Origin: an uncultured Planctomycetia bacterium
GTDB lineage: Bacteria > Omnitrophota > Gorgyraeia > 2-02-FULL-51-18 > JAGOUK01
Direction: 5' to 3'
Assembly: GCA_964430735.1 (NCBI GenBank)
Contig: CAYSFB010000002.1
Location: 222,027 to 286,026, forward strand
DNA: 64,000 bases
Position numbers and translations under genes: made by a program. The notes under the pieces were generated by a model. The model was not told the DNA's origin, made no database searches, and saw only the letters and a program-made list of their open reading frames with translations. Positions 308 through 55,572 of the stretch are shown piece by piece. Each line of letters begins with the position of its first letter. The first letter of the stretch is position 1.

Positions 308-410
308 GGTCGTCGTTGCCTCCTGTTGTGATGAAAAAGTAAATCCGTCCAACGACACCCATCCTACCGGAAGCGGTGCATTAGTTGAAATTGATTGTTG
401 TTATGTTATT

Positions 411-432
411 GATAGTTAAATACTATTGATAG
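411..432. promoter_or_regulatory. Candidate OxyR-type (LysR-family) operator half-sites ATAG-N7-CTAT-N2-ATAG in the ahpC upstream region
   Basis: The sequence gATAGttaaataCTATtgATAG lies in the AT-rich 308-483 intergenic region upstream of the minus-strand ahpC. ATTGAT is repeated three times (about 391-430). Confidence 0.3.
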
Positions 433-483
433 CTAGGGATGGCGGAACGCGGCGGAATCAAAACAACGGCCGGGCTCGAGAAA

Positions 484-3097: not shown

Positions 3098-3211
3098 CGT
3101 TTTTCCTCAAACTACGCATTCTGCGCATACTCCACATCTAAGGGATGTATGGCATGCCAAACCGCAAAATTCAAGAGCCTGAGAAGATTGTTGGAGATGG
3201 GAAAGGGATTT

Positions 3212-40100: not shown

Positions 40101-41646
40101 GCGGCTGCGGCAGCTTCGAGAGCACCGCCAGCGGCGTGTCGTGGCCCATGGAACCGGTGGCTTCTTCGCCCTCGGCCATGGGCTTGAGGATGATCTTCAG
40201 GTCCTCGAGCGTGTAGCCAAACGCCATCTGCTTGGCGGACAGGTCGGCGGGCGCCGTGTGGCGCAGGTGCTTGGGCTTCGGAAGGTTCTGGAGGTCGGTG
40301 ATGTTTTTCTCGACCCACTGCTTGTAGGGCTTGCGGGTCGCAACCTCGTGCTTGATCTCGGCGTCTTCGACGATGCGGCCTTCATGCGTGTCGACGAGGA
40401 ACATCTTGCCCGGCTGCAGACGGCCGCGCGACAGGACGCGCGTCGGTTCGATGGGCAGCACGCCCGATTCGGACGCCATGACGACGAGGTCGTCGTCGGT
40501 CACGAGCCAGCGCGAGGGTCTGAGGCCGTTGCGGTCCAGGATGGCGCCGATGTAGCGGCCGTCCGTGAACGCGATCGCCGCGGGACCGTCCCACGGCTCC
40601 ATGAGGCAGGAATGGTATTCGTAAAACGCCTTCTTGTCGGCGTCCATCGACTCGTGTCCGCTCCAGGCTTCGGGCACCATCATCATGACGGCGTGCGGCA
40701 GCGAACGGCCCGAAAGGACGAGCAGCTCCAGCGCGTTGTCGAAGATCGCCGAGTCGGAACCGGCGAGGTTGAGCGTCGGGATGACTTTTTTGAGATCGTC
40801 GCCGAACTTGTCGCTGACGAACTGCTTTTCGCGGGCGCGCATCCAGTTGATGTTGCCGCGGAGCGTGTTGATTTCGCCGTTGTGCGCGATCATCCGGTAG
40901 GGATGCGCGAGCGACCAGCTCGGGAAGGTGTTCGTGCTGTAACGCGAGTGGACGAGCGCGATCGCCGAGACCATGTCCTCGTCGGACAGGTCCGGGAAGA
41001 AGCGGTCGACCTGCGGCGAGGTCAACTGCCCCTTGTAAATGAGCGTCCGGGCCGAAAGGGAGCATATATAGAAGTAGTCCCGCTGGCCGAGATTGGACTC
41101 GAGCACCTTGAGCTCGACGCGGCGGCGGATGACGTAGAGCTTGCGCTCGAATTCGAGGTCGTCACGGACGTCTTTGCCGCGGCCGATGAAGATCTGGCGG
41201 AATTCGGGTTCGACGGAGTGGGCCACATAACCGATCTGCTTGGAATCGTGCGGCACTTCGCGCCAGCCGAGGAAGCGCTGGCCTTCTTCGTGGATGACTT
41301 CTTCGAGCCACTCTTCGATGAGGTTCTTCTCGTCCTGGCGGGTCGGCAGGAACACAAGGCCGACGCCGTACTGGCCTTCTTTGGGAAGTTCGATGTGAAG
41401 CTTGGCGGCTTCGCGGCGGAGGAACTTGTCGGGCATCTGGATGAGGATGCCGGCGCCGTCGCCGGTGTTCGGATCGCAGCCGCAGGCGCCGCGATGCTCG
41501 AGATTTTCGAGGATCTGCAGACCGGACCGGACGATGCTGTGCGACTTCTTGCCCTTCAAATGCGCGACAAAGCCGACGCCGCAAGCGTCGTGCTCGTAGT
41601 AGGGATCGTAAAGGCCTTGTTTGGGGGGAAGTCCTGCGCCGGTCAT
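37093..41646 (-). CDS. gltB: Glutamate synthase large subunit
   Basis: Start at MTGAGLPPKQGLYDPYYEHDACGVGF (Ntn amidotransferase Cys). The track ORF adds 17 upstream codons. FMN and 3Fe-4S domain motifs are present. It overlaps gltD by 8 nt. Confidence 0.9.
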   Translation of the reverse strand: MTGAGLPPKQGLYDPYYEHDACGVGFVAHLKGKKSHSIVRSGLQILENLEHRGACGCDPNTGDGAGILIQMPDKFLRREAAKLHIELPKEGQYGVGLVFLPTRQDEKNLIEEWLEEVIHEEGQRFLGWREVPHDSKQIGYVAHSVEPEFRQIFIGRGKDVRDDLEFERKLYVIRRRVELKVLESNLGQRDYFYICSLSARTLIYKGQLTSPQVDRFFPDLSDEDMVSAIALVHSRYSTNTFPSWSLAHPYRMIAHNGEINTLRGNINWMRAREKQFVSDKFGDDLKKVIPTLNLAGSDSAIFDNALELLVLSGRSLPHAVMMMVPEAWSGHESMDADKKAFYEYHSCLMEPWDGPAAIAFTDGRYIGAILDRNGLRPSRWLVTDDDLVVMASESGVLPIEPTRVLSRGRLQPGKMFLVDTHEGRIVEDAEIKHEVATRKPYKQWVEKNITDLQNLPKPKHLRHTAPADLSAKQMAFGYTLEDLKIILKPMAEGEEATGSMGHDTPLAVLSKLPQPLFNYFKQLFAQVTNPPVDAIREEIIMGSDVMLGAEQNTLDETAEHARRLRLPLPVVTSEELEQIREFEAPGLKSATLETVFRADQGTKGLEPAMEKLFKDADDAVRRGATILILSDRGVDARHAAIPSLLATAGLHHHFIRKGTRTRVSLVVETGEAREMHHFATLIGYGANAVNPYLALETIEHEIKVGHYGKELDYAHAKKNFVKAARKGLFKITSKMGISTIQSYCGAQIFEAVGLSEKLIEKYFTATPTRIGGIGIEEVAREALLKHERAYPHTQGGPTELEEGGSYHWRRDGEHHMYNPESIALLQHAVRSGEYKTFKKYTAVLNNYSQNIATIRGLLRFKKGEPIAIDQVEPAKEIVKRFATGAMSYGSISKEMHETLAIAMNRLGGFSNTGEGGEDPARYQKDANGDWRRSRIKQVAQGRFGVTIEYLVNADQLQIKMAQGAKPGEGGQLPGHKVSKEIAGTRLTTPGVGLISPPPHHDIYSIEDLAQLIHDLKNSNRHADVSVKLVSEIGVGTIAAGVSKGKSDHVLISGFEGGTGASPQTSIKHAGLPMELGIAEAQQVLVLNDLRGRIRVQTDGQLKTGRDIVVAAMLGADEFGFSTSALVVSGCILLRKCHLNTCSVGIATQDPELRKKFTGKPEHVVNYFMYLAEEVREIMAELGVRKFEDLVGRVDWLEQRDDVDHWKAKHLDLSKILHRPDVPATVAIRHTGRQDHGLDKALDMQLLEACKDAIEHQKPVKAEFKIQNTNRTVGTILSSDIAKKYGMKGLPEGTIEIQFRGSAGQSFGAFLSRGVTLKLEGDANDYVGKGLSGGRIVVAPDRNARYIPENNMIVGNVVLYGGIQGELFARGLAGERFAVRNSGVETVVEGVGDHGCEYMTGGTVVVIGPTGRNFAAGMSGGIAYIWDKDKSFEKRCNKGMVELVPVVEAADLNKLKGLIEKHAQLTGSTVAQGILSRWPAAAKEFTKVYPTDYKRVLEEAAKAAHAPAGQSAKEPVHG

Positions 41647-41756
41647 AGATAGTTTAAGTCTGTCATTACTCCTGAAAAAGCAGGCATGAAAAACCAATTT
41701 GATATGAGCGGGTTATTCTACACATCCCCGAGCCGCCGACGCAAGCAAAAAGCTCG

Positions 41757-41977: not shown

Positions 41978-42427
41978 CTAGGATGATGGCTGGGTCGCGA
42001 GCCTTTGACGGAGAGAATCGGCCTTAGATTTGAGAGCCTTTTGGCGATCTTCGTTCATTGTGGCAATCGAGGCGTATTCGTAATTGTCAGCGGCGTTATT
42101 TAGATCGCCCATCTCTTCGTAGGTTTGGGCGATGTAATCGAGAGCAATGGCCTGCGCAGGTCTGATTAGTGCATATTTTTTAAGGGCTTCTGTGTAAGCG
42201 CTAATCGCCATTTCATATTCACCAGTCTTTCGATAAGCATCACCCTGATGTTTTAACTCCAGGAAGCGGTCGGCTTGTTCATAATTATTTCTAAAATGAC
42301 TGGTCTTTTGATTTAAGCCGGTCGGTAGATTGGATTTTTTGTCGTTAGTCTGACTTCCGCTTGTGTTGCACCCAGCAAGAGCGCATAACTGAATCAGAAG
42401 TAGTCCGTGTATCAACCGATTTTTCAT
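41978..42427 (-). CDS. TPR-repeat lipoprotein, 149 aa
   Basis: Lipobox LCALAGC. TPR-like helices (YRKTGEYEMAISAYTEALKKYA...). Low-GC codon usage. Confidence 0.6.
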   Translation of the reverse strand: MKNRLIHGLLLIQLCALAGCNTSGSQTNDKKSNLPTGLNQKTSHFRNNYEQADRFLELKHQGDAYRKTGEYEMAISAYTEALKKYALIRPAQAIALDYIAQTYEEMGDLNNAADNYEYASIATMNEDRQKALKSKADSLRQRLATQPSS

Positions 42428-42440
42428 ACTGCCCTCTTGA

Positions 42441-42650
42441 AACCGGACACCCTCCCCTCCTAGCTAAAAAGGGAGGGATTACTGGGGAAAGTACCCGGTT
42501 TATACTTGCGGGCCATGAGGAACTCTTTTCATTATTTATATCACAGTTCATGGGCCGCGAAGGCGGGAGCTGTCACAAAATACTGTTAAGACTAGGGCCT
42601 GACTGCTGACCGCTCCCTTTTTGGGTTACTGGGGAGGGCGCCTAGTTTAC
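42441..42650. repeat. ~210-bp direct repeat, copy 1, immediately upstream of TPR lipoprotein gene 1
   Basis: About 96% identical to 43311..43520. It contains the hairpin CCCTCCC-N14-GGGAGGG and an identical 24-codon ORF (MRNSFHYLYHSSWAAKAGAVTKYC) on the plus strand. Confidence 0.8.
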
Positions 42651-42755
42651 AGTATCCATTAATTATCAAATAATTTTCAATACTTAACTTTAGCTACAAT
42701 CTATTACTTGTGGTACTTGAGTCTTTGGCTACAAGATGTGGAATCAAGCCCAATT

Positions 42756-43253
42756 TTAAATTTGGTTTGACTCTTGAGCCGATACAGAAGATCTAGATTG
42801 GCTGATGGCTTTGATTTTAAGGGCAGAAATTTTTGATTCGTACTCGGGGCGGGCGTAATCTTTTGGAGGGGAGGACTCTAAATGTTCAATAGCCTTTCCA
42901 TAATCACCAATGGCTTCATAGGAGGCCGCCAATCCTCGATGCGCTTCCCAGGCAACTCCAGGAAAAGCAAGTAAGGTTTTATAGTGCTCAATTGCCTCGA
43001 ACCATCTTTCTTGCTGCTCAAGCTCCCTGCCCTTCCGAAGTGGGGCATTCTCTTCATGAGCGGCTTGGACTAACTGAGTGAGATTGGTGGCCTGCTTTTC
43101 CGACGCGCCGCCCACGATTAAATGACTTCCTTCACCTGTGCGAGCCACATTATTTCCAGAACCAACTGACTCGCGCATATTTTCTTCTGGCAGATGCAAT
43201 GTGCACCCCGACAAAATCGACACTAAAATTATGAACGTAAGTATTTGTCGCAT
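42756..43253 (-). CDS. TPR-like lipoprotein, 165 aa
   Basis: Lipobox ILSGC. TPR-like helices (WFEAIEHYKTLLAF, AASYEAIGDYGKAIEHL). Low-GC codon usage. Confidence 0.55.
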   Translation of the reverse strand: MRQILTFIILVSILSGCTLHLPEENMRESVGSGNNVARTGEGSHLIVGGASEKQATNLTQLVQAAHEENAPLRKGRELEQQERWFEAIEHYKTLLAFPGVAWEAHRGLAASYEAIGDYGKAIEHLESSPPKDYARPEYESKISALKIKAISQSRSSVSAQESNQI

Positions 43254-43310
43254 AGCTCATTGCACCTTATCGGGATCAAGAATATACCGTTTTGATTCAC
43301 TGTCGTAAGA

Positions 43311-43520
43311 AACGGGACGCCCTCCCCTTCTAGCTAAAAAGGGAGGGATTGCTGGGGAAAGTACCCGGTTTATACTTGCTGGCCATGAGGAACTCTTTTC
43401 ATTATTTATATCACAGTTCATGGGCCGCGAAGGCGGGAGCTGTCACAAAATACTGTTAAGACTAGGGCCTGACTGCTGACCGCTCCCTTTTTGGGTTACT
43501 GGGGAGGGCGTCTGGTTTAC
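43311..43520. repeat. ~210-bp direct repeat, copy 2, immediately upstream of TPR lipoprotein gene 2 and 4 nt downstream of the TolB-like gene
   Basis: Near-identical to 42441..42650. Confidence 0.8.
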
Positions 43521-43523
43521 GGC

Positions 43524-44558
43524 TTACTCGCTCCAGTGCGGGGTCTCGTCAGTAGCCCAGCCGCGGCCAGGATCTTTAGCGTGGCTCGGGAGCTTCTTGG
43601 CGGGAGTAATTTGGACTTCTTCGCCGGTTTCAAGGTTCAGGGCATAGAGCTCAGCCCCTGCATAGGGATAGATATGTCGATAGGATACATAGCAAATCCA
43701 TTTGCCATCCGGAGAAAAAACGGCATCCTGATCACTCCAGGGACCAAAAGTGACTTGTCTAGCGTCGCCTGATTCAAAATCATAGATGAATATTTTTGAC
43801 TGCTCATGTATACGCTCGCCTTGTTGGTTTAGGGGTGAGGCGTAGGCGAGTTTCTTGCCGTCCGGAGAGAATGCACCTCCATGAGCTGCTCTAGCAATAA
43901 GCCTGTTGTCAGTGCCATTAGATTTAATAGTCCAAACGCTGAACACTCCATATTCTTTCTCGCCCATCATTGCATATGACAATAGTCCTCTCGCATCGTT
44001 GAAGTTGAGCTGTGTAATTTGCCTGCTGCCGGGCATTGGTGTTAGGTTTGATATTTTAGTTAAATTATTGTCTTGTAAGTAATAGATGTTATCGCTTCCG
44101 CCGGCGGGTTCTGACGCATCAAAACGCACGACATACGCACCGCCGCGGGTCAAGATTGCTCTACTCCCATCAAGATAGTAATTTGCCTTCTCCGGCTGTC
44201 TCAAATCAACAACACCGAACTTGCGTCCGGATCTCACCAATACTTCATTGCCCCCTGAAGTCAAACGCGGTTGTTCGTACCCCCCAAATGCTCCGCCGAG
44301 GAAAGATGGGACCCCTTGTGGCATTGGGTTTTCAGAATCACTCTTGGATAAAACCTTCTTGATGGCACCTTTCTCGAAGAGCCACACTTCCCCCCTGCCC
44401 CCATCTCGATTAGAGATAAAAACAATTTTGCCAGAGAGCTCTGCCGCTCTCGAATCCACAGCTTCTTTGGGCAATCCTTTGATCTCGGACTTATCGCTCT
44501 TGGCACATCCCGCTGTAAAAAAAATGGCGACTGCCAAAACTACTCTTAAATAAATCAT
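43524..44558 (-). CDS. TolB-like beta-propeller lipoprotein (PD40/WD40-like repeats)
   Basis: Start at MIYLRVVLAVAIFFTAGC (lipobox), 4 nt after the stop of the giant gene. PD40-like repeats FSPDGKKLAYAS and FSPDGKWICYVS. Confidence 0.65.
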   Translation of the reverse strand: MIYLRVVLAVAIFFTAGCAKSDKSEIKGLPKEAVDSRAAELSGKIVFISNRDGGRGEVWLFEKGAIKKVLSKSDSENPMPQGVPSFLGGAFGGYEQPRLTSGGNEVLVRSGRKFGVVDLRQPEKANYYLDGSRAILTRGGAYVVRFDASEPAGGSDNIYYLQDNNLTKISNLTPMPGSRQITQLNFNDARGLLSYAMMGEKEYGVFSVWTIKSNGTDNRLIARAAHGGAFSPDGKKLAYASPLNQQGERIHEQSKIFIYDFESGDARQVTFGPWSDQDAVFSPDGKWICYVSYRHIYPYAGAELYALNLETGEEVQITPAKKLPSHAKDPGRGWATDETPHWSE

Positions 44559-44562
44559 ATGG

Positions 44563-47500
44563 TTAAGATCTCTCAGTTGACTCGATCCATTTATCAATAG
44601 CATGCTTGAGATCCACAGGACTTAACAACCCATCTTCTGCATAGGCGCTTAAGTCCACCTGAAGACTATCTCTGATTATATCAGTGACAACCTCACTACA
44701 GAATTTACGTAGAGCAGGGTCTCCGAATGCCTTGGTTCTTTCCGATAGGAGGTACGCCCACCAGTACGACTGACCTATGATGGGCTTTGAGGGGTCAGCA
44801 CTCACTAGGGCGCCGGGATAGTCATAGTTAAGAATGGTGTTGGGATGCATTGTTGATTCGTCTATATACGCTTTAGACAGGTGGGATTGTATTGTTCTTG
44901 CACTTTCAATATCGATCGGCAACTCCTGCACCTCAATATCTAAATACTTCCCGTGCCAGTCATCAAATGGCATCACAACAAGATCGGTCTGCAAATCAAC
45001 TCCCATTGACTGATTGACCTGTCTGCCCGTGTTCTGAACCTCAATGATATATGGCTTTCCGTCCGACGCTGCGAATAGCATCGCCGAATGGTTGTAACCC
45101 ACTGCGTCCCGCCCCGGGATCGTCGACCCTTGTCTGATCACAAGACCTGTTGCGTCTGCTCCAACCACATGAATAACGGCCACTTTGCCTTGGGCAGCAA
45201 GAGCCAATGCTTTTTGCACATGATCATTCTTATGCTGCTTGATCTCTGATTCGGTTCTGGCCCCGTATCGGTTCCAGATCTGATTGAATATCCTCTCGTA
45301 TGATTCGGATGCAGAGAGGCCGGCGTCTTTGATTTTTTGATTAACCACGGCTAATTTTGCTGCGGCGATTTCATTTGATGCGCTCAGGTTAAGCTTGATG
45401 CGGTCGCCAAGCTTTTCCCATTCGAGCCGAAGGCCGTCCAGGTCGCTTGCTTTGATATCGGCCTGTTCGATGATTACTTCTTCCGGAGCCACCGCCCTGA
45501 ATAGCGTGTTCTGCTTGGTGATATCGCCATCCGTGATCTTGATGTGAATATCATTGGATTCGATGTCCCAATCAAGCTCGTCTTGAGGCGATTCGCTGAC
45601 AATGCTTCCGTCGGATGACCAGGCTAGATCCGAGCCTGGCGTGAAGCGGACTTCTTGGGCTGCGCCGCCCGGGACTTGGGGTGGATGCTGCATCAGAATG
45701 TGGACGATAATTCCATTTGAGACTTGATAAGTTCTCCGCGTGCCGTCCGGATCCAGATAGACCGCCTCGCCCTCCCAAAGCCGCACTTGCCCGTCAGGAT
45801 CCAGCGTCATGACGCCGCTCAAGAGACGATTGGGGCCACTCAACTCCACGATCTTATCGGTCGCGAGATCGACCAGAATATACTCGTTCGCCGCTGAGTC
45901 CGGATTGATCGAGACTTTGCGGTAGTTCCGGCCTCCGATCTCAACGCGCGTGGCTGGATCGGTCAGCTGGTAATTGATGTAGCTTTTAATGGAGTCATAC
46001 GTCTCAAGAATCCTCTCCATCAATTGCTGGCGGAGAATTGTCGTCGCGTGTTGTTCGAGAACTTCCGCAAGACCCCCTTGGGTCTTAAGTACCAGGTCTG
46101 TGAAGAGCCTAATGCCGCTCAAGCCTTGAAAAGTTTCAGCGAACCGGATCGTGAATTGGGTTACGGAATCTTTAAGACCGTCGAACACCCTTGCAAAAAC
46201 ATTCCGCTGGTCGCCGGACCCGTTTTTTACAAGACCGCTGACGGCACCCAAAAATAGCTCGGAGCCGAGCGCGCTCTCGAAGGGATCAAGGCCTGCCGTC
46301 TCACCGACCTTGTCGAGACTGATTTGAACGAGCTTGGTTGCGATGGTCCGTAATCCGTCTTCGACCGATGCGATGGTGCCGCGGATGAGTCCTGCAGGAT
46401 CGAAGATTCCTCCGAAAACGCCTCCTGCGACTGAACCAACAATGCTCGTGATCCGAGGATCGAGTCCAATGGAGCTGCCGAGCTTGTTGATGCCATAGGC
46501 TGTGAGCTCCTGCGCCAAGAACGGCCGGATCGTCGTGAATATCTCTCCGATCTTCCCCTGCCATGCTCCGCCAGCGAGGGCTCCGGCTGTGACTGAGAGA
46601 ATGTCAGTCAAAGAGGAATCCATACCTGAGGCTGATAAGAGCGTCTTGGCTCCGGCCTGGACTGCACCCCTCAATCCCGCCTGCAGAAAAAGACTCGAGC
46701 TGAACCCCGTAGGCGAGATTCCGCCTAGGAAGCCTCCGGTCAAAAACCCTGTGAGGACGCTCGAGATGCCCGGGTTTACTCCAAGGGCATCCAGTCCCCT
46801 CTGCAGCCCGTAGTTCAACCCCACCGTGATGGCCGACTTAAACAATGACCCTGCGGTCAGACTATTCAAGCTCAGGCCAAAGAACCCGCCTTGAGTGGCC
46901 GGGGCGAAGAGACTGGTCAGCCCTCCTCCGAACAGATGCGTCCCTGCGAACTTAAGGCCCGTAAAAGCCGCCTTAGCGAGAGTCCCGATACCCTGGATCA
47001 CCCCGCCCAGGATCTGCCCCAGAGAGATGATGATGTTTCCGATGATAGCCCCGATCGAGGCGATGATGCCTCCGATGGCGGCAAGGATGCCTCCGATGGC
47101 GGCGGTGATGCTCGTGATGGCTCCGATGATGGCGGGGATGAGGAAGAAAAAGGCGCCTTTGATCTCCTTGGACTCTCGGACAGAGATCTTCTGGTTGGCC
47201 AAGGCCGGCGGCGCATGGGCATCCGGAAGCAGAGAGGTTCCTTGCCAGATCTTGAGGAATTCTTCTTTGGAGAGGACTTTGACTTCCCCGTTATCCAGGA
47301 AGGTGACTTCCGACTGCGTGGCTTTGACGAGATTCACATAGTGCTTGCCGTCGACGTGGAGGACGGGTCTGGCGGAGTCGTTGTTGAGCGAGAAGACCCT
47401 AAGGTCCTCATAAGTCAGCTTGAAGCCCGAAGCGGGCGCGCCGTAGAGAGCGGCGGTGCGGCTCATTGCGAAGAGACTCACGAGCATCTCTTCGCCGGGC

Positions 47501-50500
47501 TTAAGGAACGGGTGGATCTGACCGGTGAGGATGTCGACGAGGATCATCCGGGAAGCCAGCTCCGTGCGGTCGGACTCGGTAAAGGTCTGGCCGCGTGACT
47601 TTAAGAGCTCGATCAAGGGATCGATGGCGCTTTCTGCGAAGTGAAGGGATTGGGATTCCAGAAAGGCCTTGAGCTTGGCGACTTCCGAGGCGGTGAGGCT
47701 CACCGCTTCGGCCGACGTGAGGCCAAGCGATGTTAGAACGGCTTGGCGCTGAGAAGCGTCCAGCAGCGCGTCGAGGCGGCCGAAGATCGACTGAGTGATC
47801 GCGGCCTTGCGTGACGCGCGGCTCGTGCGCTCCGAAGACTGTGTGAGAGAAGTCCTCAGCGCCGAAGGTGCAGCAGCCTGCGTTTGAGCAGCAGCCAGCT
47901 CCGACGCGGACGGATCCCGACCCAGGATCTCGCGGTACACGTGGATCGTCACAGCCTTCTTCTCCTCGGTCCGGATCGAAACCTGGGATTTGGCGAACTC
48001 CGCGTCGAGATGCGCGAAGGCGCGGTCAAAGTCGGATTCGATCTGAAGCTTTTTTTGATCCAGCGCGGCAGAAAGCGCCGCCAGCTGACGGGACCTTTCC
48101 TCTTCGATCGCGGCCTTGGCCTCATCGATTTTGCGGATCACGTCACGGTAAGCGTCGAGCGTGGCGGACTTTTGCTTCTTTCCCGCGGAACCTTTGGCCT
48201 TTTGGCCTTCGAGCTCATTCAGGAGATTCTGATAGTGATTGCGCTGGTTGTTGAGATCCGCCTGCTGGAGATCGACCTGCGCCATAAAGTCCGACGTGAT
48301 GAGGGCCGCCTCCAGCGCCTGATCGGTGAGCGCTTCGAACTTTTGTCGCTCCGCCTGGATCTTCGCGTCAAAAAGCGCCTCGTCCAGCGCCCGGCGCTGG
48401 CCTTCGTTGCGGATCTCGACGAGCGCGTCCGACGCGTCGTAGACGTACTGCGTGAGCGTGTAGCCCTTTAAGTCATACACCGCGTCGATGCGGTCTGTGC
48501 CGGGAATATACGTCAGCACCGTCTTGTCCGCACGCGCGAGCGAAACCATCCGTCCGGCCGCGTCGTATGTCGAGACGATGGGCGTTTCGGCCTTGAGGGC
48601 CGAGCCGACCTGGGACTTCACCGCCTGCCAATTGACCTGACGGAAATTGAGATCGGTGTCATACACCAGCTTCGAACGGTCCAAGGGCGCTGCCCCTGAG
48701 GCGGCGGCATGCGTCTTCGTGAGCGTGAGAGCGGTCGAAGCTTTTTCCGCGCGGAGCTCGAATCCCGACGTGCCCAGGAGCGCTGACCGGCCGGCGGCGG
48801 CTTCGGCGAAGAACACACCCTCGAGCGACTTGGGATGGTTCAGGCGAACGGTCATCCTGTCGGGGCGCGCAGCGCCCTGCGGATAAACATACACTTCCGT
48901 GAAGTCGCCTTTGGCGAAAAATTCCACCGTGTACGGCTTGCCTGCCTCGTAGCGCATTCCGGTGGCGAACCAGCCGCTGCCGCTGTCGGCGCGGACCGTG
49001 CCGTCGGCGTCGAACTGAATGGCGATGCGGTGACTTGAGCCGTTGACAACGGTGAGGTCGTAACCAACAGTGAGACGCGATTGGGCTTCGACCTGGACGT
49101 CCGCCTTGCGCGCGAGCGCGTCAAAGAATGCGAGCTCATCCGCCGAATCTTCGGTAAGCGCCCGAACTCCGGAAGGCGCCTGACCCGGGGCGACGTCGAA
49201 CCGGGCCGTCAATGCCTGCTCGTACTCGTAACGCTTCATGACAGTCAAACGCGATGTCGGGATCACGCCCAGCATTTTGCGGACGCCCGGTTCGCCGATC
49301 ACGGTTTTTTCACCGTTCTTGCGCGCCACGTAATAAAACGGAAGGTCGTGCGAAGCGACGATCGTGCCGCCGCGTTCCATGTACTCGCGGGGGATATTCC
49401 GGGTCGAAATCGACAGCGGGCTCGAAGGATCGTAAACCGTCTCGGGCATCGCGCTCTGCAGCATCATGACCGCGGTCCCCTCTCCGCGCGTCGTGAAGAA
49501 TTCCTTGAGGTCCTGCGCCGAAAGGACCTTGAAGCCCTTCGCCGTGAGAATCTGCTTCATCATCAGAGCGAATCCGCCGCCCGTGCCGCCGTAGTATTCG
49601 GGATCGAAGTAAACGTACCGCTCGGACTCCTCCGCGTGCGAGGCCAGCGCGGCATAATCCGCCAAACGCGAAGGGTCGTTGTAGTAATTGGGGTCGTTTG
49701 CGCCGCCCCAGAGATAAACGAATCCCGAATCCGGATGCGCGGGAGAAAAATTCTTCTTCCATCCCGCCGCACCTCCGTCCGCCGACGCAAAAACCTCGAG
49801 CTCCGGCTCCTCCTCGAACTGGTACGCGGATCTCCATCCCGCGCCCGGAGCGTCCGCAAAATCGTCATAAGCGATCGAACGACCGGCGGCGTCGTAATAA
49901 CGGATGTCGCTCTTCACGTTCGAAAGAATCACGGCGCCTTCGCCGACGCGCTTCAGATCCTCGATGGCGCTGCCGGACATGCCGCCCTTGCGTCCGATCA
50001 TGGCGAAGCTGTCGCGATAACCGATCCCGCGGATCTTGGCGCTGCCCAGACTCTCGATCGCCTTCATAGCGCGCTCCGTCAGGTTCTTCGAACCTTCGTC
50101 CGCGACGGCCAGGGCCACGATATCCCCCGCCGGAACGCCTTCGATGAAGTCCGCCATCCGTTCGGCGTCCTGCGGACCGACGATGTAGGGATCGAACCAG
50201 TCTTTTTTGACCACTTTGCCGGACGCGTCCAGATGGACCAGCGCCCAGCCGCGCGTGAGGGAACGGTTCTGGGTCGACGTCTTTTCGATGTCAAAAGGGA
50301 TCAGGTCCTCGCCGTTCACCGTGATGGAAGCGTTCCATCCGTCCAGATAACCGTACGAGGCGACGCGCACGTCTGACGGGAGCCCGAGTCCCGCAACAGG
50401 CACGCGCTCGCTGTGGACGGAGCGGGTGTGCGTGATATTCCCCTGCGCGTCTTCGCGGAATCCGAAGTCAGTCGTGACACCCCTCGCGGCGTCCGTGATC

Positions 50501-53500
50501 CGCAGAAGACGCCCGGTCTTGTCGTATCGATAAACCTCGACGCCGCGCGTGACGTCGATGAAGGTGACGCGGCCGGCCGCGTCGCGCAGATATTTGGCGC
50601 GCGAGCCGTCGTCATGCGTCACTTCGTCGACAAGCCCTTCCTTGAGAAGCACGTTCTGATAACGGCCCGCGTCGGCCGCGACGTCGATCGACGTTCCGTC
50701 CTTGAGCAGGATCTTTTGGACGGTGTCGTCTTTGTAAAAAAGTGTCATGCCGTCGGCGGTCTTGGCCGAATAGAGCGCATGCTCCTCAAAAACCGCTCCC
50801 GCGTCGCCGGCGAGATCCGACTTCTTGTAGCGCAGCCCTTCAGCCGTCTCGATGAAGATCAGCTTGCCGGAAGGGTCGTAGATCTTGGCGAGTCCGGCCT
50901 CGTCGGTGATGCGCGTTTCGTTCCCCTCGTAGGAATAAGTAAACTTGGAAAGCTGCCGGCCCTTCCACGTCACGGCGGAGTGAGCGATCCGGTCGCCGTG
51001 CTCGGCGGTGTAACCGTAGGTCGTCAGAAGTCCCTCGGCGTCAGCGCTGGTGAGGAGCCGTCCCGCGTCGTATCGCTTCACCTCGTGTGTTTTGGCGTCC
51101 TCGATCACGGTGATCTCGCGGTCTCCCTCAAATTCGTAAGAGTAACGGTAAAGCGCCGCTCCGGTCTCGGACGCGACCTCGCGGATCTTCCCGTATTCGT
51201 ATCGCGTGATCGTGCGCGCTCCGCCCGCGGGACGCGTCGCCGTTTCCTTCACGCGGCCGTCGGCGTCGTAGACATACTCAGTCTCGGTGCCGTCCGCGGA
51301 CATCACACGGCTCGACCGCCCGTTCGCATACGCATAGGCCGACCCGTCCGCGCGCACGGAGCTGACCGCCTCGCCCGCCGTATTCACCGTCATCCGAATA
51401 TCCGCCGAACCCGGTGCGGAGACGCGGTTGAACGCGAGAGCCCTGGCCGGCCATCCGGAACCTCCGGGAAGCCGCGACAAAGACGGTTGACCCAGAACAT
51501 TCGCCGCATCCTGAGGCGTTAGAAAAAGCTCTGACTGATGCGCCTTGGCCTGCGCGGTATCCAGTTCAAAAAATCCCGCCTGCTCGACCTTGATCGTCCA
51601 CGTATCGGCCGCCTTTTGCGGCGGAATGAAGTCGATCGCCATGCTGAAAATGGGTGTCGTGACATCGCGGTCGACCGGAATGAGGACGGTCATGGGACCG
51701 CCAGTCACCTGCACTTCCCGGGCAAGTGCATCGAGCTCTGTGGCAGAACTGCCGAACGTCGGATGAATTCTCACAGTCGAGAGAAGCGGTGCGTTCTCCA
51801 CCCGCAGCTTGACGTAGATGTAACCGCCTTTTTTGACCTTCAAGTCCTGGAAATTGTCGAATTCGAACCGGACACCGGTCCGATCCGCAGCTGCGTTGAT
51901 CATCGTGGAGGAGATGATGATTTTGGATGCGGTATCGTCCTTCGGCTGGTTCAGATAAACTGCCTTGCCGGTCCCGTCGGCCAGCCGCACGCCGCTTTGA
52001 GAGTTGTATCGCGTCAGCAGGTTCCACCCGCCCTGCCCCTTCACCGGCCAATAGCCCGGATTCGCTCGTCCGTTGATCCAATCCACGAAGTCCACGCGCG
52101 CAAATCCGTAGTTGAATGCGGCCGCGCGCGTCACGAGGCCCGACGCGTCCCTGGCGAATTCAAAGGTCGTCAATTTGCCGTTCTCGGTGATGCTCGACAC
52201 CGTTCCGGATACATCGAACCGCACCTCCGTTCCGTCCGGCCGCAGTGTGCGTTCGAGCCGGCCTTCGGTGAGCGTGTGCAAGGTCCCGTCCTCGGTCAGG
52301 ATTTGACCGGAACGGAGCCTCCCCTCCGCATCCAAGACAGGATAAAAATAAGAGATACTGCCGTTCGAGACGGATTCGAGCCCGTTCTCGCCGTATGCGG
52401 CCGTGATCCCCTCGGCTTCGTAGCACACCAACCGCGACTGCGCATCGAAGGTCCGTTTTTCGAGGCCTTGCGCCGCATGCGTCTTGAGAATGCTGCCGTC
52501 GGGCGCAGTCTCATAAGTCAGGAGCGTCACCGTTCCGCCGGCGTCGATGCTCCGGACGAGCCGTCCGTTCTCAAAAAAGGTCTTTTCCCCGGACGCGGAA
52601 GACGCCTCGGTCAGGACTTTGTTCTCGAACCGGAGCTCCCAAGATACGCCCTGAGCGTCCCGCGCAAGCAACCGGTAGTCGTCCAGATCTCCCGACGCAT
52701 CGAACCCAAGTTCCGTGAGCATGTCGCCGTTTTCGCGCGTGATGCGGAACGGTTGTCCGGTCGCAGCGTCCAGTTCGACCATGTCTCCGGAAGCCGTGCG
52801 GTATTGCGTCAACACCATCTCATAACCGCCACTTCCGTTCGCCGCCGCTGCAATCGGATGATAGTCGTATTTGCGGCCGTCGGACATGCGCGTTTGAATG
52901 GGCTTCCCCAAATCGAAGCTCGTCACCGTTCCGTCGGGCTTGCGCTCTTCGACGGGCTGTCCGTCTTGATACCGGCGAACCGAGCCGTCCGGCAACCGCA
53001 CCGAAGCGTTCCGGATCTCCGTTCCGGACGCGCCGCCGAACACGATATTTTCGATGCGCGTGCCGTCGGCTTTTTCGACGCGGACCACTTTTTGGTCCTG
53101 ATAAAAAACCGTCTGCGCTTCCGCCGTGCCGGCGCCCGTCGTCACCGAACGGATCCCGCCCTGCGCGTCGTACGCCGTCTCAAGACCCGCGCGCTTCATC
53201 GTCATTCCGGCCAGATTCCCGTAAGCGCTTTCTTCAAATAAAAAGTCCGTCGTCCCCGACTGCCCGGTCGAGCGTTTGAGCAACCCGTCCTCAAATTCGG
53301 AGATGGAACCGTCCCTCAGGACCGTCCGCAGGATCTGCCCGTCGGCGTCATAGTCGGCGGAAAGAAGCTCGGGCAGACTGACGCCGGACAAGAGGGCGGC
53401 TGACGATGCGGCGGACGCAAGCGCCGTCCGCGCGGCGGCATCGGACGCGAGGACCGGCGCGGTCAAAGTCTTCGGATCGACCGACGCGACGTTCCTGGAT

Positions 53501-55572
53501 GCTTCCGTTCGGGCTGTCGCGTTGGTGAGCGTCGCGGAAATAGCGGCGCTCGACACCAGGACCGCCGACGACATCGTCGCCGCAGCCGGCCGCGCAATGG
53601 CGGCGTCATAAACAAAAAGATTGATCTTCCCGTTCTCGATCCGGAGCTCGGCCGCATAGTCGCGGCCGGCCGAGAGCGCCTGGTTGAACGTGGTCGTCGT
53701 ATTCGTGATCTTGCCGGTCGACGTATTTTTGGACGCCTTCACCAACGTCCAGCGGCCCGAAACCCAGGTGAACGTGTAAGTATTTTGCGTGGTGCCGGAA
53801 GCCGGCTGGACAGCGGTCAGCACGATCTTGTTGGTTGAGCTCGCAGTGTCGAACTTCAAAGTCGTCTTATGAACCGGGTTGCCCGCAAGCTGTGCGGAAG
53901 TTTTTTCCGTGATCTGGACGGTCTTGGCGACGGTTCCGGCGGACGGCGTGAACGACAGGACCGACGCGTTCGTCGCGGTCATATCGAATCGGGGGTTCCA
54001 GTTCTTGGTCGTGATCCGCGCCTGCGGGACGGAAGGGCGGACTTTGCCCTGTTCATACACATAGATGCCGATGCCGGCCGCTTCCCAGCGGATCTCTCCG
54101 GTGTAGGTCTTGGTCCCGTCGAGCGTCAATCCCAGACTCTTGGCTGCAGCGGTTCCGTATTTCCAGGTCGAACCGGAACCGGGAACCAGATCCAGCGCGA
54201 TATTCGCCGCGGCCGTGTTGGCCGCGTTCACCTGCACCCGCCGTCCGGCCGCATTGTCACCGAAACGGATATTAAAAACAGCCGACGGATTGCTGCTGTA
54301 ACCGATCGCGGCCGACGTGGTGTAAGTCGCCACGTCCTGCAACGTCGTCACGGTCTCGCGACGGATCGCCGTCACCTGACCCGCAGTCGTCGCGTAATCG
54401 TACAACGCCGTCACGCCCTGAGCCGAAACGCTCTGGGCCGGATATCCCTTGTAAGTCCCGGCCGTGTGATAGGTCCAGACCGTTCCGTCCGCAGCCGTGC
54501 TCCGCAACGGGTCGCCTGCCAACGAGTACTCCGTAGTCCGCCCCTGAGAAGCCGCGGTGATCCGGTCCGCCGCATAGGTATAAACGGTCTGAATCCCCTG
54601 CGCGTCGGTCGAGCGGATCAATTGAGACGAAAGATAAACGAACACACGGCCGTCGGCAAACCGGACCTCCGCATCGGCAATCGCGCCGGACTGCCAACGG
54701 ATCGCGCGGATCTCCGTTCCGCCGGCAAGACGCACAGCCGTCACGCCCCCTTGAGCGTCCAGCGTCCAACGGTTCCCCGCCGCGTCCGTCACCGACTCCA
54801 GCCGCACCCGGACGCCGGCGCCTTCCGGCGAAGCCGCGTACTGATAGATTTTTCCACTCTCTTCAATGCGGTCCAGACGGCCGGCCGTATAAACGACCTT
54901 TTTCCCCGACGCATATGCCGTTTCGATCAAACGGTTCTGCGCGTCGTATTTGGAAACGCTGTCCGAGGATGCGGCGGTCGTTTGAGTCACGGCTCCAGAC
55001 GCATCGAGCAGGTAGGTGTACACGATCTCTTTGCCGGAAGGCAGGATCGCTTTTTCTGCGCGGCCGGCGGAATTATAAAAGATCTGCGTTCCGTCCGGCA
55101 GACTCGCTGCGATCGCAGCTCCGCCCTGGATCACCTGAATCGTGCCGTCGTTCAGCCGCAGGTTTGCATCGACGATCTTCCCGTCGGCGTCAAATTGCAG
55201 ACCGGTGAGAATGGTTCCATCCGCGCGCGTGATGCCGGTGATCGCGCCATCCTGCAGCGTGAGCAGATCTCCGGCGGATGTCTTGAGCGTCATTTCGGGG
55301 GCGGGGGCGGCCTGGGAGGCGGTCTGGCTATTTTGGGCTTCGAGATCCTGAAGGGCGGTCTGGGAATCGATCACCGCTTCGTTCTGCGATATAAGGGTTT
55401 GCTGCTGTTCGGAAGACGGAGACGGAGCTCCGGCTTGCAACTCGAGGAATTTTTTGGCGTCGTCGAGCAACTTTTGACGGGGATCCAGCGCCCACACCAC
55501 GTCCATCCAGAATACGGACAGCGCCACCGTAAGTGCGATCGCCTTGAACCGAACCGAGAATCGCTTTTTCAT
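44563..55572 (-). CDS. Giant secreted RHS/YD-repeat (teneurin-like) protein, 3669 aa, with an ILEI/PANDER-like domain, a long coiled coil, a Cys-less peptidase-C39-like domain, a glycine-zipper hydrophobic region and a C-terminal domain I cannot assign
   Basis: Signal peptide MKKRFSVRFKAIALTVALSVFWMDVVWA. Dozens of YD repeats (TYEYDADGRV, RYEYGKIREV, VYRYDKTGRLLRITD, TYIPGTDRIDAVYD...). ILEI-like segment DWFDPYIVGPQDAERMADFIEGVPAGDIVALAVADEGSKNLTERAMKAIESLGSAKIRGIGYRDSFAMIGRKG. C39-like segment RPVLHVDGKHYVNLVKATQSEVTFLDNGEVKVLSKEEFLKIWQG, which lacks the catalytic Cys. Glycine-zipper segment IPAIIGAITSITAAIGGILAAIGGIIASIGAIIGNIIISLGQILGGVIQGIG. Confidence 0.75.
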   Translation of the reverse strand: MKKRFSVRFKAIALTVALSVFWMDVVWALDPRQKLLDDAKKFLELQAGAPSPSSEQQQTLISQNEAVIDSQTALQDLEAQNSQTASQAAPAPEMTLKTSAGDLLTLQDGAITGITRADGTILTGLQFDADGKIVDANLRLNDGTIQVIQGGAAIAASLPDGTQIFYNSAGRAEKAILPSGKEIVYTYLLDASGAVTQTTAASSDSVSKYDAQNRLIETAYASGKKVVYTAGRLDRIEESGKIYQYAASPEGAGVRVRLESVTDAAGNRWTLDAQGGVTAVRLAGGTEIRAIRWQSGAIADAEVRFADGRVFVYLSSQLIRSTDAQGIQTVYTYAADRITAASQGRTTEYSLAGDPLRSTAADGTVWTYHTAGTYKGYPAQSVSAQGVTALYDYATTAGQVTAIRRETVTTLQDVATYTTSAAIGYSSNPSAVFNIRFGDNAAGRRVQVNAANTAAANIALDLVPGSGSTWKYGTAAAKSLGLTLDGTKTYTGEIRWEAAGIGIYVYEQGKVRPSVPQARITTKNWNPRFDMTATNASVLSFTPSAGTVAKTVQITEKTSAQLAGNPVHKTTLKFDTASSTNKIVLTAVQPASGTTQNTYTFTWVSGRWTLVKASKNTSTGKITNTTTTFNQALSAGRDYAAELRIENGKINLFVYDAAIARPAAATMSSAVLVSSAAISATLTNATARTEASRNVASVDPKTLTAPVLASDAAARTALASAASSAALLSGVSLPELLSADYDADGQILRTVLRDGSISEFEDGLLKRSTGQSGTTDFLFEESAYGNLAGMTMKRAGLETAYDAQGGIRSVTTGAGTAEAQTVFYQDQKVVRVEKADGTRIENIVFGGASGTEIRNASVRLPDGSVRRYQDGQPVEERKPDGTVTSFDLGKPIQTRMSDGRKYDYHPIAAAANGSGGYEMVLTQYRTASGDMVELDAATGQPFRITRENGDMLTELGFDASGDLDDYRLLARDAQGVSWELRFENKVLTEASSASGEKTFFENGRLVRSIDAGGTVTLLTYETAPDGSILKTHAAQGLEKRTFDAQSRLVCYEAEGITAAYGENGLESVSNGSISYFYPVLDAEGRLRSGQILTEDGTLHTLTEGRLERTLRPDGTEVRFDVSGTVSSITENGKLTTFEFARDASGLVTRAAAFNYGFARVDFVDWINGRANPGYWPVKGQGGWNLLTRYNSQSGVRLADGTGKAVYLNQPKDDTASKIIISSTMINAAADRTGVRFEFDNFQDLKVKKGGYIYVKLRVENAPLLSTVRIHPTFGSSATELDALAREVQVTGGPMTVLIPVDRDVTTPIFSMAIDFIPPQKAADTWTIKVEQAGFFELDTAQAKAHQSELFLTPQDAANVLGQPSLSRLPGGSGWPARALAFNRVSAPGSADIRMTVNTAGEAVSSVRADGSAYAYANGRSSRVMSADGTETEYVYDADGRVKETATRPAGGARTITRYEYGKIREVASETGAALYRYSYEFEGDREITVIEDAKTHEVKRYDAGRLLTSADAEGLLTTYGYTAEHGDRIAHSAVTWKGRQLSKFTYSYEGNETRITDEAGLAKIYDPSGKLIFIETAEGLRYKKSDLAGDAGAVFEEHALYSAKTADGMTLFYKDDTVQKILLKDGTSIDVAADAGRYQNVLLKEGLVDEVTHDDGSRAKYLRDAAGRVTFIDVTRGVEVYRYDKTGRLLRITDAARGVTTDFGFREDAQGNITHTRSVHSERVPVAGLGLPSDVRVASYGYLDGWNASITVNGEDLIPFDIEKTSTQNRSLTRGWALVHLDASGKVVKKDWFDPYIVGPQDAERMADFIEGVPAGDIVALAVADEGSKNLTERAMKAIESLGSAKIRGIGYRDSFAMIGRKGGMSGSAIEDLKRVGEGAVILSNVKSDIRYYDAAGRSIAYDDFADAPGAGWRSAYQFEEEPELEVFASADGGAAGWKKNFSPAHPDSGFVYLWGGANDPNYYNDPSRLADYAALASHAEESERYVYFDPEYYGGTGGGFALMMKQILTAKGFKVLSAQDLKEFFTTRGEGTAVMMLQSAMPETVYDPSSPLSISTRNIPREYMERGGTIVASHDLPFYYVARKNGEKTVIGEPGVRKMLGVIPTSRLTVMKRYEYEQALTARFDVAPGQAPSGVRALTEDSADELAFFDALARKADVQVEAQSRLTVGYDLTVVNGSSHRIAIQFDADGTVRADSGSGWFATGMRYEAGKPYTVEFFAKGDFTEVYVYPQGAARPDRMTVRLNHPKSLEGVFFAEAAAGRSALLGTSGFELRAEKASTALTLTKTHAAASGAAPLDRSKLVYDTDLNFRQVNWQAVKSQVGSALKAETPIVSTYDAAGRMVSLARADKTVLTYIPGTDRIDAVYDLKGYTLTQYVYDASDALVEIRNEGQRRALDEALFDAKIQAERQKFEALTDQALEAALITSDFMAQVDLQQADLNNQRNHYQNLLNELEGQKAKGSAGKKQKSATLDAYRDVIRKIDEAKAAIEEERSRQLAALSAALDQKKLQIESDFDRAFAHLDAEFAKSQVSIRTEEKKAVTIHVYREILGRDPSASELAAAQTQAAAPSALRTSLTQSSERTSRASRKAAITQSIFGRLDALLDASQRQAVLTSLGLTSAEAVSLTASEVAKLKAFLESQSLHFAESAIDPLIELLKSRGQTFTESDRTELASRMILVDILTGQIHPFLKPGEEMLVSLFAMSRTAALYGAPASGFKLTYEDLRVFSLNNDSARPVLHVDGKHYVNLVKATQSEVTFLDNGEVKVLSKEEFLKIWQGTSLLPDAHAPPALANQKISVRESKEIKGAFFFLIPAIIGAITSITAAIGGILAAIGGIIASIGAIIGNIIISLGQILGGVIQGIGTLAKAAFTGLKFAGTHLFGGGLTSLFAPATQGGFFGLSLNSLTAGSLFKSAITVGLNYGLQRGLDALGVNPGISSVLTGFLTGGFLGGISPTGFSSSLFLQAGLRGAVQAGAKTLLSASGMDSSLTDILSVTAGALAGGAWQGKIGEIFTTIRPFLAQELTAYGINKLGSSIGLDPRITSIVGSVAGGVFGGIFDPAGLIRGTIASVEDGLRTIATKLVQISLDKVGETAGLDPFESALGSELFLGAVSGLVKNGSGDQRNVFARVFDGLKDSVTQFTIRFAETFQGLSGIRLFTDLVLKTQGGLAEVLEQHATTILRQQLMERILETYDSIKSYINYQLTDPATRVEIGGRNYRKVSINPDSAANEYILVDLATDKIVELSGPNRLLSGVMTLDPDGQVRLWEGEAVYLDPDGTRRTYQVSNGIIVHILMQHPPQVPGGAAQEVRFTPGSDLAWSSDGSIVSESPQDELDWDIESNDIHIKITDGDITKQNTLFRAVAPEEVIIEQADIKASDLDGLRLEWEKLGDRIKLNLSASNEIAAAKLAVVNQKIKDAGLSASESYERIFNQIWNRYGARTESEIKQHKNDHVQKALALAAQGKVAVIHVVGADATGLVIRQGSTIPGRDAVGYNHSAMLFAASDGKPYIIEVQNTGRQVNQSMGVDLQTDLVVMPFDDWHGKYLDIEVQELPIDIESARTIQSHLSKAYIDESTMHPNTILNYDYPGALVSADPSKPIIGQSYWWAYLLSERTKAFGDPALRKFCSEVVTDIIRDSLQVDLSAYAEDGLLSPVDLKHAIDKWIESTERS

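Follow-up and report, generated by a model that had tools for sequence, protein, structure and literature searches.

What kind of protein is encoded by the giant open reading frame (ORF) at 44563..55572 on the reverse strand of the window, the 64,000-nucleotide stretch analyzed here (contig CAYSFB010000002.1, positions 222,027 to 286,026) from an uncultured bacterium labelled Planctomycetia and placed in the Omnitrophota by GTDB? An initial annotation of this DNA had described a secreted YD-repeat protein whose domain order resembled those of polymorphic toxins and teneurin-like proteins. Our analysis points, with a probability of about 0.55, to a Sec-exported, self-processing YD-repeat polymorphic toxin of an Omnitrophota-like bacterium, in which a C39-type peptidase domain would release a fragment bearing a glycine zipper and a probable permuted NlpC/P60 (C92) tip, with a PD40 lipoprotein as the likely immunity protein. 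As a kind, this is a variant of the polymorphic toxins and not a new category. Frameshifts marking the gene as a pseudogene would have refuted the initial annotation, and there are none: the ORF is a single frame with no break from its ATG, and an independent assembly of sequencing run SRR14271366 has a contig that codes for the identical protein. The coordinates of all features are collected in Table 1.

Similarity of the protein to its closest homologue ends at the tip boundary. This homologue, at locus L002, is 51-56% identical and collinear over amino acids (aa) 1-3191, with no similarity beyond. Among 116 tips from the family, the first ~220 aa are related in most, and the last 230 aa fall into unrelated classes of 62, 10, 5, 3 and so on, together with 28 singletons; one of these classes has a weak match to the RES domain. 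A low guanine-plus-cytosine (GC) island, at window positions 41978-46200, matches exactly the extent of the swappable tip plus the three downstream lipoprotein genes, with a GC content of 0.43-0.56 versus ~0.61; the drop, from ~0.61 to 0.46-0.56, sets in at roughly nt 46200, and the value is back up at GltB (37093-41697). Because this shift spans both, the tip and its partner genes appear to be a horizontally exchanged unit. The polymorphic-toxin-like order proposed initially is supported by the unrelated tip classes, the tip-specific downstream genes and orphan cassettes described below, and the break in both GC content and homology at the tip boundary.

Two of the other tips deserve mention as observations in their own right. 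The commonest class (62 of the 116; for example, aa ~1270-1513 of P0001) is a ~230-aa domain with an invariant Ser-Gly, two Pro and a His, in the motif '(A/Y)(H/Y)SG...P ... G..H.D(Y/F)'. It had no sequence match in Pfam or the PDB and may be a new hydrolase-type toxin family, conceivably of lipases. The singleton tip of P0033 ends in '...KPHYHPNGREPHIHIWY', a His-rich sequence that looks like an HNH/colicin-type nuclease signature and is a candidate for one.

The gene next to the tip follows the class of the tip. In the window, the PD40 gene starts 4 nt past the end of the giant gene. A PD40 gene, homologous to that of the window (E 1e-40 to 3e-20), comes next in all six examined loci with C92 tips (the window, L003, L004, L010, L014 and L015), and a small TPR gene comes next in all four examined loci with tips of the commonest class, or class 1 (L002, L007, L016 and L017). 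The PD40 lipoprotein is likely to be the cognate immunity protein. The two TPR genes of the window have no adjacent tip; at L002, an orphan fragment of the module with a class-1 tip is followed by a TPR gene that matches the second TPR gene of the window at E 9e-38. These two TPR lipoproteins are likely to be orphan immunity genes against the commonest tip class. An array of three family members in tandem was found at L003 (1-9848, at the end of contig CAZSGP010000003.1 of a metagenome-assembled genome, or MAG), where one form truncated by the contig end is followed by short forms of 985 and ~881-1006 aa. Each of the three has a downstream gene, the first two of them PD40-like. The start of both short forms lies within the C39-like domain (module position ~213); P0002, a protein of this locus, carries a signal peptide of its own and still has the G-G site. 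The short forms have no catalytic half of the peptidase and would therefore need cleavage in trans.

The family is defined by the C-terminal module that precedes the tip. A profile of aa 2538-3198 was built from three relatives and run exhaustively against 1.84 billion cluster representatives, of which 637 matched at E<=1e-3 and 219 at E<=1e-30. With aa 2600-3669 as the query, a word-indexed search gave 3 relatives only, probably since low-complexity words filled the candidates. Most members are 2300-5000 aa long, and the module ends 400-600 aa before their C-terminus. Among 103 full-length representatives, the C39-like domain is present in 102 and YD regions in ~88. The named relatives come from Omnitrophota MAGs, one of which has three paralogues, and from two MAGs labelled 'uncultured Planctomycetia'; together with the helicase encoded near the giant gene, they point to a probable Omnitrophota-like source of the window. 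Except for the partial C39 match, searches of Pfam and NCBIfam gave no above-threshold family match for aa 2538-3198. The module is widespread yet undescribed, and its 637 cluster representatives would allow a new family to be defined. At L002 (2952-14542; MAG contig CAZHID010000009.1), the giant gene is present as two ORFs, of 2268-2295 aa and 1513 aa. The gap between them, ~160 nt, falls within the third beta-rich domain, and both halves are collinear with the window protein; the split reflects either a pseudogene or an assembly error.

For the tip of the window protein, an enzymatic identity can be proposed from conserved residues and profile matches. Five homologous tips were aligned, and the class was later extended to 7 members. 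Asn3494-His3495, Tyr3583 and Cys3625 are invariant in the five, with the His motif before the Cys motif; Cys3625 is one of only two Cys in the giant protein, the other being Cys1050. The five-tip profile matched two PDB entries, 3kw0 (B. cereus YaeF) at E 4.9e-5 and 2if6 (E. coli YiiX) at E 9.7e-4, with both alignments covering both motifs. PF05708 was matched by one of the five at E 0.002. BLAST found nothing between the window tip and P0003, and the two were linked later by profile. The last ~245 aa would accordingly read as a permuted NlpC/P60 (YaeF/YiiX, C92) domain with a putative His3495/Cys3625 dyad. In enzymes of the permuted NlpC/P60 group, a conserved Tyr and a lipid-binding pocket accompany the Cys/His triad (PMC3142127), and two type VI secretion system (T6SS) effectors of this kind, Tox-Act1 and TseH, are phospholipases acting in the periplasm (PMC12994826). 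Because of the analogy to Tox-Act1 and TseH, the C92 tip most likely attacks membrane lipids from the periplasmic side. What had been listed initially as a ~780-aa C-terminal region with His/Cys motifs resolves into the region of four 'LGxDP' units, a junction helix, a beta-rich domain and the C92 domain. The Gly-rich 'LGxDP' region of P0001 (aa 722-931, equivalent to window aa ~2900-3110) has a faint match to Pfam DUF637 (E 0.067), a domain of CdiA/FhaB-type proteins. This match could be compositional, or it could point to a remote relationship with the region that precedes the toxin in contact-dependent inhibition proteins.

The domain proposed to release the tip is the C39-like one. The cut-off of Pfam Peptidase_C39 is 22 bits; aa 2699-2784 score 19.3 bits within the whole protein and 24 bits when the segment is scanned alone. 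AlphaFold2 was applied to aa 2612-2878 together with 28 family sequences, and the mean predicted local distance difference test (pLDDT) score of the model is 84.4, with values >90 across the C39 domain. The best PDB matches of the model in Foldseek are all double-glycine peptidase domains (PCAT1, ComA and LahT150), with TM-scores <=0.72 over 155 columns. The family profile matched the PCAT1 sequence at E 1.8e-7, and the alignment places His2744 at 'AHFVVI', the Asp/Glu of position 2760 at 'ADPGKG' and Trp2776-x-Gly2778 at 'IWTG', so the catalytic His and acidic residue of C39 enzymes are both present. The canonical catalytic Cys is not present in the window protein, which has Ser2648 instead; in the family alignment, the motif 'HFGxSAFLxL' stands in place of the 'xCGxAxLxxxL' of C39 enzymes. 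In the initial annotation this domain had been called C39-like, with a His/'WQG' motif and simply without Cys. The fold is supported by AlphaFold2, Foldseek and Pfam, and the W-x-G element is conserved in the family, but the implication of a dead enzyme does not fit a conserved Ser at the nucleophile position.

The pattern of conservation is that expected of an active site. Position 2648, taken as the nucleophile from its motif and its place in the helix, is Ser in 131 of 135 family rows and Cys in the other 4. His2744 is invariant (142/142 rows), and at position 2760, 71 rows have Glu and 65 have Asp. Of 122 rows, 113 show the combination H-S-H-(E/D)-G and 4 show N-C-H-(E/D)-G, and the four Cys rows are exactly those in which Asn replaces His2644 (HFGxS versus NFGxC). 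Since Ser/His and Cys/Asn covary perfectly, His2644 (window codon 47683-47685) may help to activate Ser2648 (47671-47673). In the model, Ser2648 sits at the N-terminus of a helix and His2744 opens a beta-strand, which is a papain-like arrangement. A position restricted to Ser or Cys, together with an invariant His and an acidic residue, looks like the pattern of a working nucleophile and not that of a degenerate binding domain, and we infer from it that Ser2648 is catalytic.

A candidate substrate for this peptidase lies in the same chain, directly after the C39 domain and abutting the hydrophobic zipper. The family columns at aa 2796-2807 read L/I, S/T, x, x, E/Q, A/T, x, x, I/V, R/K, G, A/S/G, with Gly2806 invariant in 146 of 146 rows. 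The consensus of class II bacteriocin leaders is LSXXELXXIXGG (PMC1538908); the columns agree with it at -12, -11, -8, -4, -2 and -1, and position -7 is A/T and not L. A leader regular expression matches at this site in 97 of 143 rows, and it has 115 matches in total in the 420,984 residues of 151 proteins, with one in the window protein, at aa 2796-2807. In the AlphaFold2 model, the pLDDT of the leader segment falls from ~90 to 72, and residues 2805-2806 form a beta-bridge, a geometry compatible with docking onto the C39 domain, without being proof of it. Because a conserved motif of the double-glycine type adjoins a C39 domain, cleavage in cis is suggested.

Cleavage at this site would expose the glycine zipper. 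As originally described, this is a hydrophobic stretch of ~60 residues with small residues at regular intervals: from aa 2817 to 2863 a small residue comes every 3-4 positions, the family conserves small residues as a class at these places, and AlphaFold2 predicts the stretch as one long helix. Kyte-Doolittle hydropathy exceeds 1.6 solely here (aa 2805-2865) and at aa ~10-30 of the giant protein, where the peak agrees with the hydrophobic, signal-like segment already proposed as an N-terminal signal peptide. In a subfamily (for example, P0044, P0051 and P0063), what comes after the G-[S/A] site is not a glycine zipper but an amphipathic stretch rich in Trp and Lys (GSGWWxKFWKGIV...), which resembles cationic membrane-active peptides.

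Taken together, these features can be ordered into a mechanism. The ~2400 N-terminal residues, with their four YD blocks interleaved with beta-rich and ILEI domains, would most likely be an extracellular stalk or binding part. The C39 domain, with Ser2648, His2744 and Asp2760, would cut after Ala2807, either in cis or between neighbouring molecules, with the motif L/I-S-x-x-E-x-x-x-I-x-G2806-A2807 right after the peptidase serving as its own cut site. The cut would free a fragment of ~860 residues with the 60-residue glycine zipper as its new N-terminus. The zipper would then insert into the target membrane, probably oligomerizing, and carry along the 'LGxDP' repeats, the beta-rich domain and the swappable enzymatic tip. 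Here, the tip would be the C92 domain, which would attack membrane lipids from the periplasmic side by means of His3495 and Cys3625, and the PD40 lipoprotein would neutralize it in the producer. The domain identities, the conservation of residues, the tip polymorphism and the pairing with partner genes are established by the analysis; catalysis by Ser, the cut, membrane insertion, the lipid substrate and immunity are inferences. A more ambitious version, which we put forward tentatively and with the odds against it, is that the C-terminal module is a so far undescribed, self-contained toxin-release device, in which a papain-fold C39 protease, switched from Cys to Ser and acting on a cis double-glycine 'leader', would turn a giant YD-repeat surface protein by one cut into a bacteriocin-like glycine-zipper pore or translocator with exchangeable lipid-attacking enzymes, and that this device, with >600 sequence clusters, would be a main contact weapon of ultra-small, host-dependent Omnitrophota.

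The N-terminal part was delimited by domain searches. The whole protein matches RHS_repeat (PF05593, Pfam) at E 2.2e-20 and the YD repeat TIGR01643 (NCBIfam) at E 3e-10. A separate Pfam scan of each block delimited four YD/RHS blocks, each over the Pfam cut-off on its own and together holding ~1200 aa of YD repeats; neither a YD regular expression nor a self-iterated hidden Markov model delimited the repeats. Three of the segments between the blocks are copies of one beta-rich domain, with mutual E-values of 5e-5 to 0.02. The YD repeats of the initial annotation are in this way confirmed, and its description of the beta-rich segments as carbohydrate-binding-like comes down to sub-threshold matches. 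Its ILEI domain is confirmed by PF15711 with 78.1 bits against a cut-off of 27, over profile positions 1-90 of 90. Because only 9-12 family members (~10%) carry it, ILEI is an accessory domain of the family. The ~330-aa coiled coil had been overextended: a helical stretch is probable from composition (72% A/E/L/K/Q/R/D, charged and with no Pro) and covers ~150 aa (2395-2540), after which comes a DUF4214-like segment. The homologue P0003 matches PF13946 there at E 7e-4, under the cut-off, and the segment is kept in 65 of 103 full-length members.

The same domains have been read in another way in related bacteria. West-Roberts et al. report C39-like domains, ILEI and C-terminal transmembrane anchors in giant proteins of Omnitrophota and favour adhesion and cell-surface processing. 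Applied here, the protein would be a surface-anchored adhesin: the zipper would be a stop-transfer anchor in the inner membrane of the producer, the YD and ILEI parts would be displayed for attachment, the C39-like domain would at most shed them, and the C-terminal enzyme and the downstream lipoproteins would work together in the producer's envelope, for instance on the acyl remodelling of lipids or lipoproteins, as LnsA-type permuted NlpC/P60 enzymes do. Such a role would suit the single strongly hydrophobic stretch besides the N-terminal signal, the three downstream genes that all encode lipoproteins, the absence of delivery machinery near the locus, and the inclusion of lipoprotein N-acyltransferases among the permuted NlpC/P60 enzymes (PMC7387801). 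However, a housekeeping envelope enzyme is not expected to be swapped for unrelated domains, including a RES-like one, while the 3190 residues upstream remain collinear; toxin/immunity loci are typified by orphan cassettes of tip and partner and by orphan partner genes, as found here, and the GC shift is the mark of a horizontal exchange of tip and partner genes as one unit. We therefore consider an adhesin unlikely.

Two further readings of these parts do without self-cleavage or have a different kind of release. The C39-like domain might be a non-catalytic leader-binding module, as in the haemolysin transporter HlyB, that acts within the molecule as a clamp or chaperone for the double-glycine-like helix, with no cleavage and one chain throughout. 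The canonical Cys is, after all, missing in 131 of 135 family rows, substrate-binding non-catalytic C39-like domains are known in type I secretion, and the activity of Ser-based papain-like families is unproven (PMC10318531). Yet a pure binder has no use for an invariant His, a conserved Asp/Glu, or a position where only Ser or Cys occurs, in step with an adjacent His or Asn; moreover, an invariant Gly at -2 with a small residue at -1 is what cleavage requires, beyond helix binding. All of this makes the reading improbable. Far less probable still is the canonical cocoon of Rhs, Tc and teneurin proteins, in which a YD shell encloses the C-terminal toxin and the RHS-core aspartyl autoprotease releases it. 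The total length of YD repeats would be in keeping with such a shell, and a faint precomputed TEN_YD-shell match is on record, but the RHS-associated core TIGR03696 was not reported in the NCBIfam whole-protein scan at E<=1, other domains split the YD repeats into four blocks, and >1000 residues (the helical segment, the C39 domain, the hydrophobic zipper and the Gly-rich region) lie between the last YD repeat and the effector, with a different processing module conserved instead. With no RHS core and the wrong domain order, the Rhs-cocoon model was rejected, and the teneurin/Rhs-type shell of the initial annotation is not supported.

The self-processing toxin remains our preferred reading, and several results weigh against it. 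As a single sequence, the last 290 aa of the window protein had no match in Pfam, the PDB or the protein database. The AlphaFold2 model of the tip is confident in the first ~300 residues only, with a pLDDT of ~40-55 in the C92 part, and fold searches with this model gave generic beta-sheet matches and did not convincingly recover NlpC/P60. Replacement of Cys by Ser on a papain-like scaffold is without a demonstrated natural protease precedent, and the published examples are only conjectured to be active (PMC10318531). The NCBIfam leader models match the motif weakly (E 0.035-0.086). A stop-transfer anchor in the producer would explain the 60-residue hydrophobic stretch equally well. The pairing of tips and partners covers 10 loci. 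Finally, no secretion or translocation machinery was found nearby in the genes scanned on both sides, and a Sec-exported protein of 3669 aa would still have to cross the outer membrane and reach a target.

The closest parallels in processing are the C39 domains of PCAT/AMS transporters (PCAT1, ComA and LahT150), which share the fold, the conserved His, Asp/Glu and W-x-G, and an adjacent leader-like motif. The nucleophile there is Cys, whereas here it would be Ser in 97% of the family rows. Their domain is fused to an ABC transporter, and the one described here is embedded in a giant secreted protein; no ABC exporter was found among the genes scanned on either side. Also, the 'leader' here is C-terminal to the peptidase in the same chain and is followed by an 860-residue protein, not by a short peptide. 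A C39-family domain within a large polymorphic-toxin protein is known from StbD, a CdiA-like effector whose C-terminal toxin is a C39 peptidase; it auto-processes, cutting its own chain, and recognizes Gly-Gly sites (bioRxiv 10.64898/2026.05.07.723447). In StbD, however, the C39 domain is the toxin itself, is Cys-based, cleaves topoisomerases and lies at the extreme C-terminus. In the present family the domain is internal and Ser-based, is conserved whatever the tip class and precedes a separate effector.

Glycine zippers occur in membrane-active toxins, as in the transmembrane glycine zippers of VacA, in Cdz and in class II bacteriocins. The stretch described here shares with them the small-xxx-small periodicity over ~60 hydrophobic residues and, as in class II bacteriocins, a position right after a double-glycine-type site. 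It differs in being the putative N-terminus of a large multi-domain fragment that bears an enzyme.

In overall plan, the protein resembles the Rhs/YD polymorphic toxins of Zhang et al. 2012 (PMC3482391), which likewise have a long YD N-terminal part, recombining variable C-terminal toxin domains, downstream immunity-type genes and orphan cassettes, and among which Sec-dependent versions and NlpC/P60 tips are listed. The releasing peptidases given there are HINT, ZU5, PrsW, caspase, MCF1-SHE, PVC-metallopeptidase and OTU, and C39-like domains are listed as toxin tips only, not as releasing peptidases. Here, by contrast, no RHS core or aspartyl autoprotease was detected, and a C39-fold domain occupies the position of the releasing peptidase, followed by the glycine zipper. 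The tip shares with Tox-Act1, TseH and YaeF/YiiX (PMC12994826, PMC3142127) the order of His before Cys with an invariant Tyr between, the profile match to YiiX and B. cereus YaeF, and, with the two effectors, a toxin context with a downstream partner. The carrier here is a YD-repeat protein predicted to be Sec-exported, compared to a T6SS there, and the partner is a PD40 beta-propeller lipoprotein, compared to a two-helix membrane protein. West-Roberts et al. 2023 (bioRxiv 10.1101/2023.11.21.568195) discuss the giant proteins of Omnitrophota ('Archaeovorins' and dockerin-type) as coats that degrade cell walls; these proteins are 30,000-85,000 aa long and contain SecA-like, glycosyltransferase or dockerin domains. 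They come from the same phylum and share C39-like and ILEI domains, beta-helical repeat regions and C-terminal transmembrane segments with the present family. Published surveys of these proteins give C39, ILEI and C-terminal anchors as domain lists only, and the Ser nucleophile, the cis double-glycine site, the tip polymorphism and the immunity pairing do not appear in West-Roberts et al. 2023.

If the self-processing toxin reading holds, it would add a new type of releasing peptidase to polymorphic toxins and would join double-glycine bacteriocin processing with Rhs-type toxins, two fields that have been handled separately. The family also offers a natural test case for a Ser nucleophile in a papain-fold enzyme, in which the covariation of Ser/His with Cys/Asn shows the residues to swap. 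The C92 tip and the PD40 lipoprotein, in turn, are a concrete effector-immunity candidate for uncultured Omnitrophota, which are suspected predators or parasites, and both are of a size suited to expression in E. coli.

Table 1. Features of the giant gene and of the lipoprotein genes downstream of it, in window coordinates.
Feature	Position in protein (aa)	Window coordinates	Strand	Basis or remark
Whole giant ORF		44563..55572	(-)	3669 aa + stop; ATG start
Sec-type signal peptide (MKKRFSVRFKAIALTVALSVFWMDVVWA, followed by LD)	1-28	55489..55572	(-)	read from sequence + hydropathy peak
YD/RHS block 1	100-425	54298..55275	(-)	PF05593, 60.1 bits, 5 stretches
Two copies of beta-rich domain	425-705	53458..54300	(-)	internal similarity; sub-threshold Pfam GH43_C, sialidase CBM
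YD/RHS block 2	740-1165	52078..53355	(-)	PF05593, 31.5 bits
Beta-rich segment	1165-1400	51373..52080	(-)	no Pfam match; in only 2 family members
YD/RHS block 3	1400-1745	50338..51375	(-)	PF05593, 57.4 bits; TIGR01643
ILEI/FAM3-type domain	1774-1864	49981..50253	(-)	PF15711, E 7.6e-22
Segment	1875-2135	49168..49950	(-)	no family match; in 11-13 family members
Third beta-rich copy	2140-2300	48673..49155	(-)	internal similarity
YD/RHS block 4	2300-2400	48373..48675	(-)	PF05593, 23.6 bits
Helical/coiled-coil segment (probable)	2395-2540	47953..48390	(-)	composition
DUF4214-like segment (VYREILGRDPS motif)	2540-2612	47737..47955	(-)	homologue P0003, PF13946
C39-fold peptidase-like domain	2612-2790	47203..47739	(-)	candidate triad S2648/H2744/D2760 + H2644, Q2641
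Double-glycine-leader-like motif (ISVRESKEIKGA)	2796-2807	47152..47187	(-)	column conservation; proposed cut after A2807
Glycine/small-residue zipper	2808-2870	46963..47151	(-)	only strongly hydrophobic stretch besides N-terminal signal
Gly/Ser/Ala-rich region, four 'LG(V/L)(D/N)P..(S/T)' units	2871-3130	46183..46962	(-)	sequence
Conserved junction helices	3131-3196	45985..46182	(-)	similarity to closest homologue stops here
Beta-rich first half of tip	3197-3422	45307..45984	(-)	AlphaFold2 pLDDT ~80; generic beta-meander matches only
Permuted NlpC/P60 (YaeF/YiiX, C92)-like effector domain (putative)	3423-3669	44566..45306	(-)	invariant N3494, H3495, Y3583, C3625
PD40/Tricorn-like beta-propeller lipoprotein, 344 aa (lipobox FTAGC)		43524..44558	(-)	Pfam PD40 E 6e-13; candidate cognate immunity
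TPR lipoprotein, 165 aa (lipobox LSGC)		42756..43253	(-)	candidate orphan immunity; homologous to L017, L007 TPR genes
TPR lipoprotein, 149 aa (lipobox LAGC)		41978..42427	(-)	candidate orphan immunity; E 9e-38 to L002 TPR gene

Outside the giant gene and its three lipoprotein genes, the flanking genes that were scanned are of the housekeeping type, with GltB downstream and a DEAD-box helicase, Dus and an ECF sigma factor upstream. An intergenic region of ~250 bp separates the giant gene from the gene upstream of it, which encodes an RF-1-domain protein. The neighbouring helicase is closest to named Omnitrophota proteins, with 58% identity.

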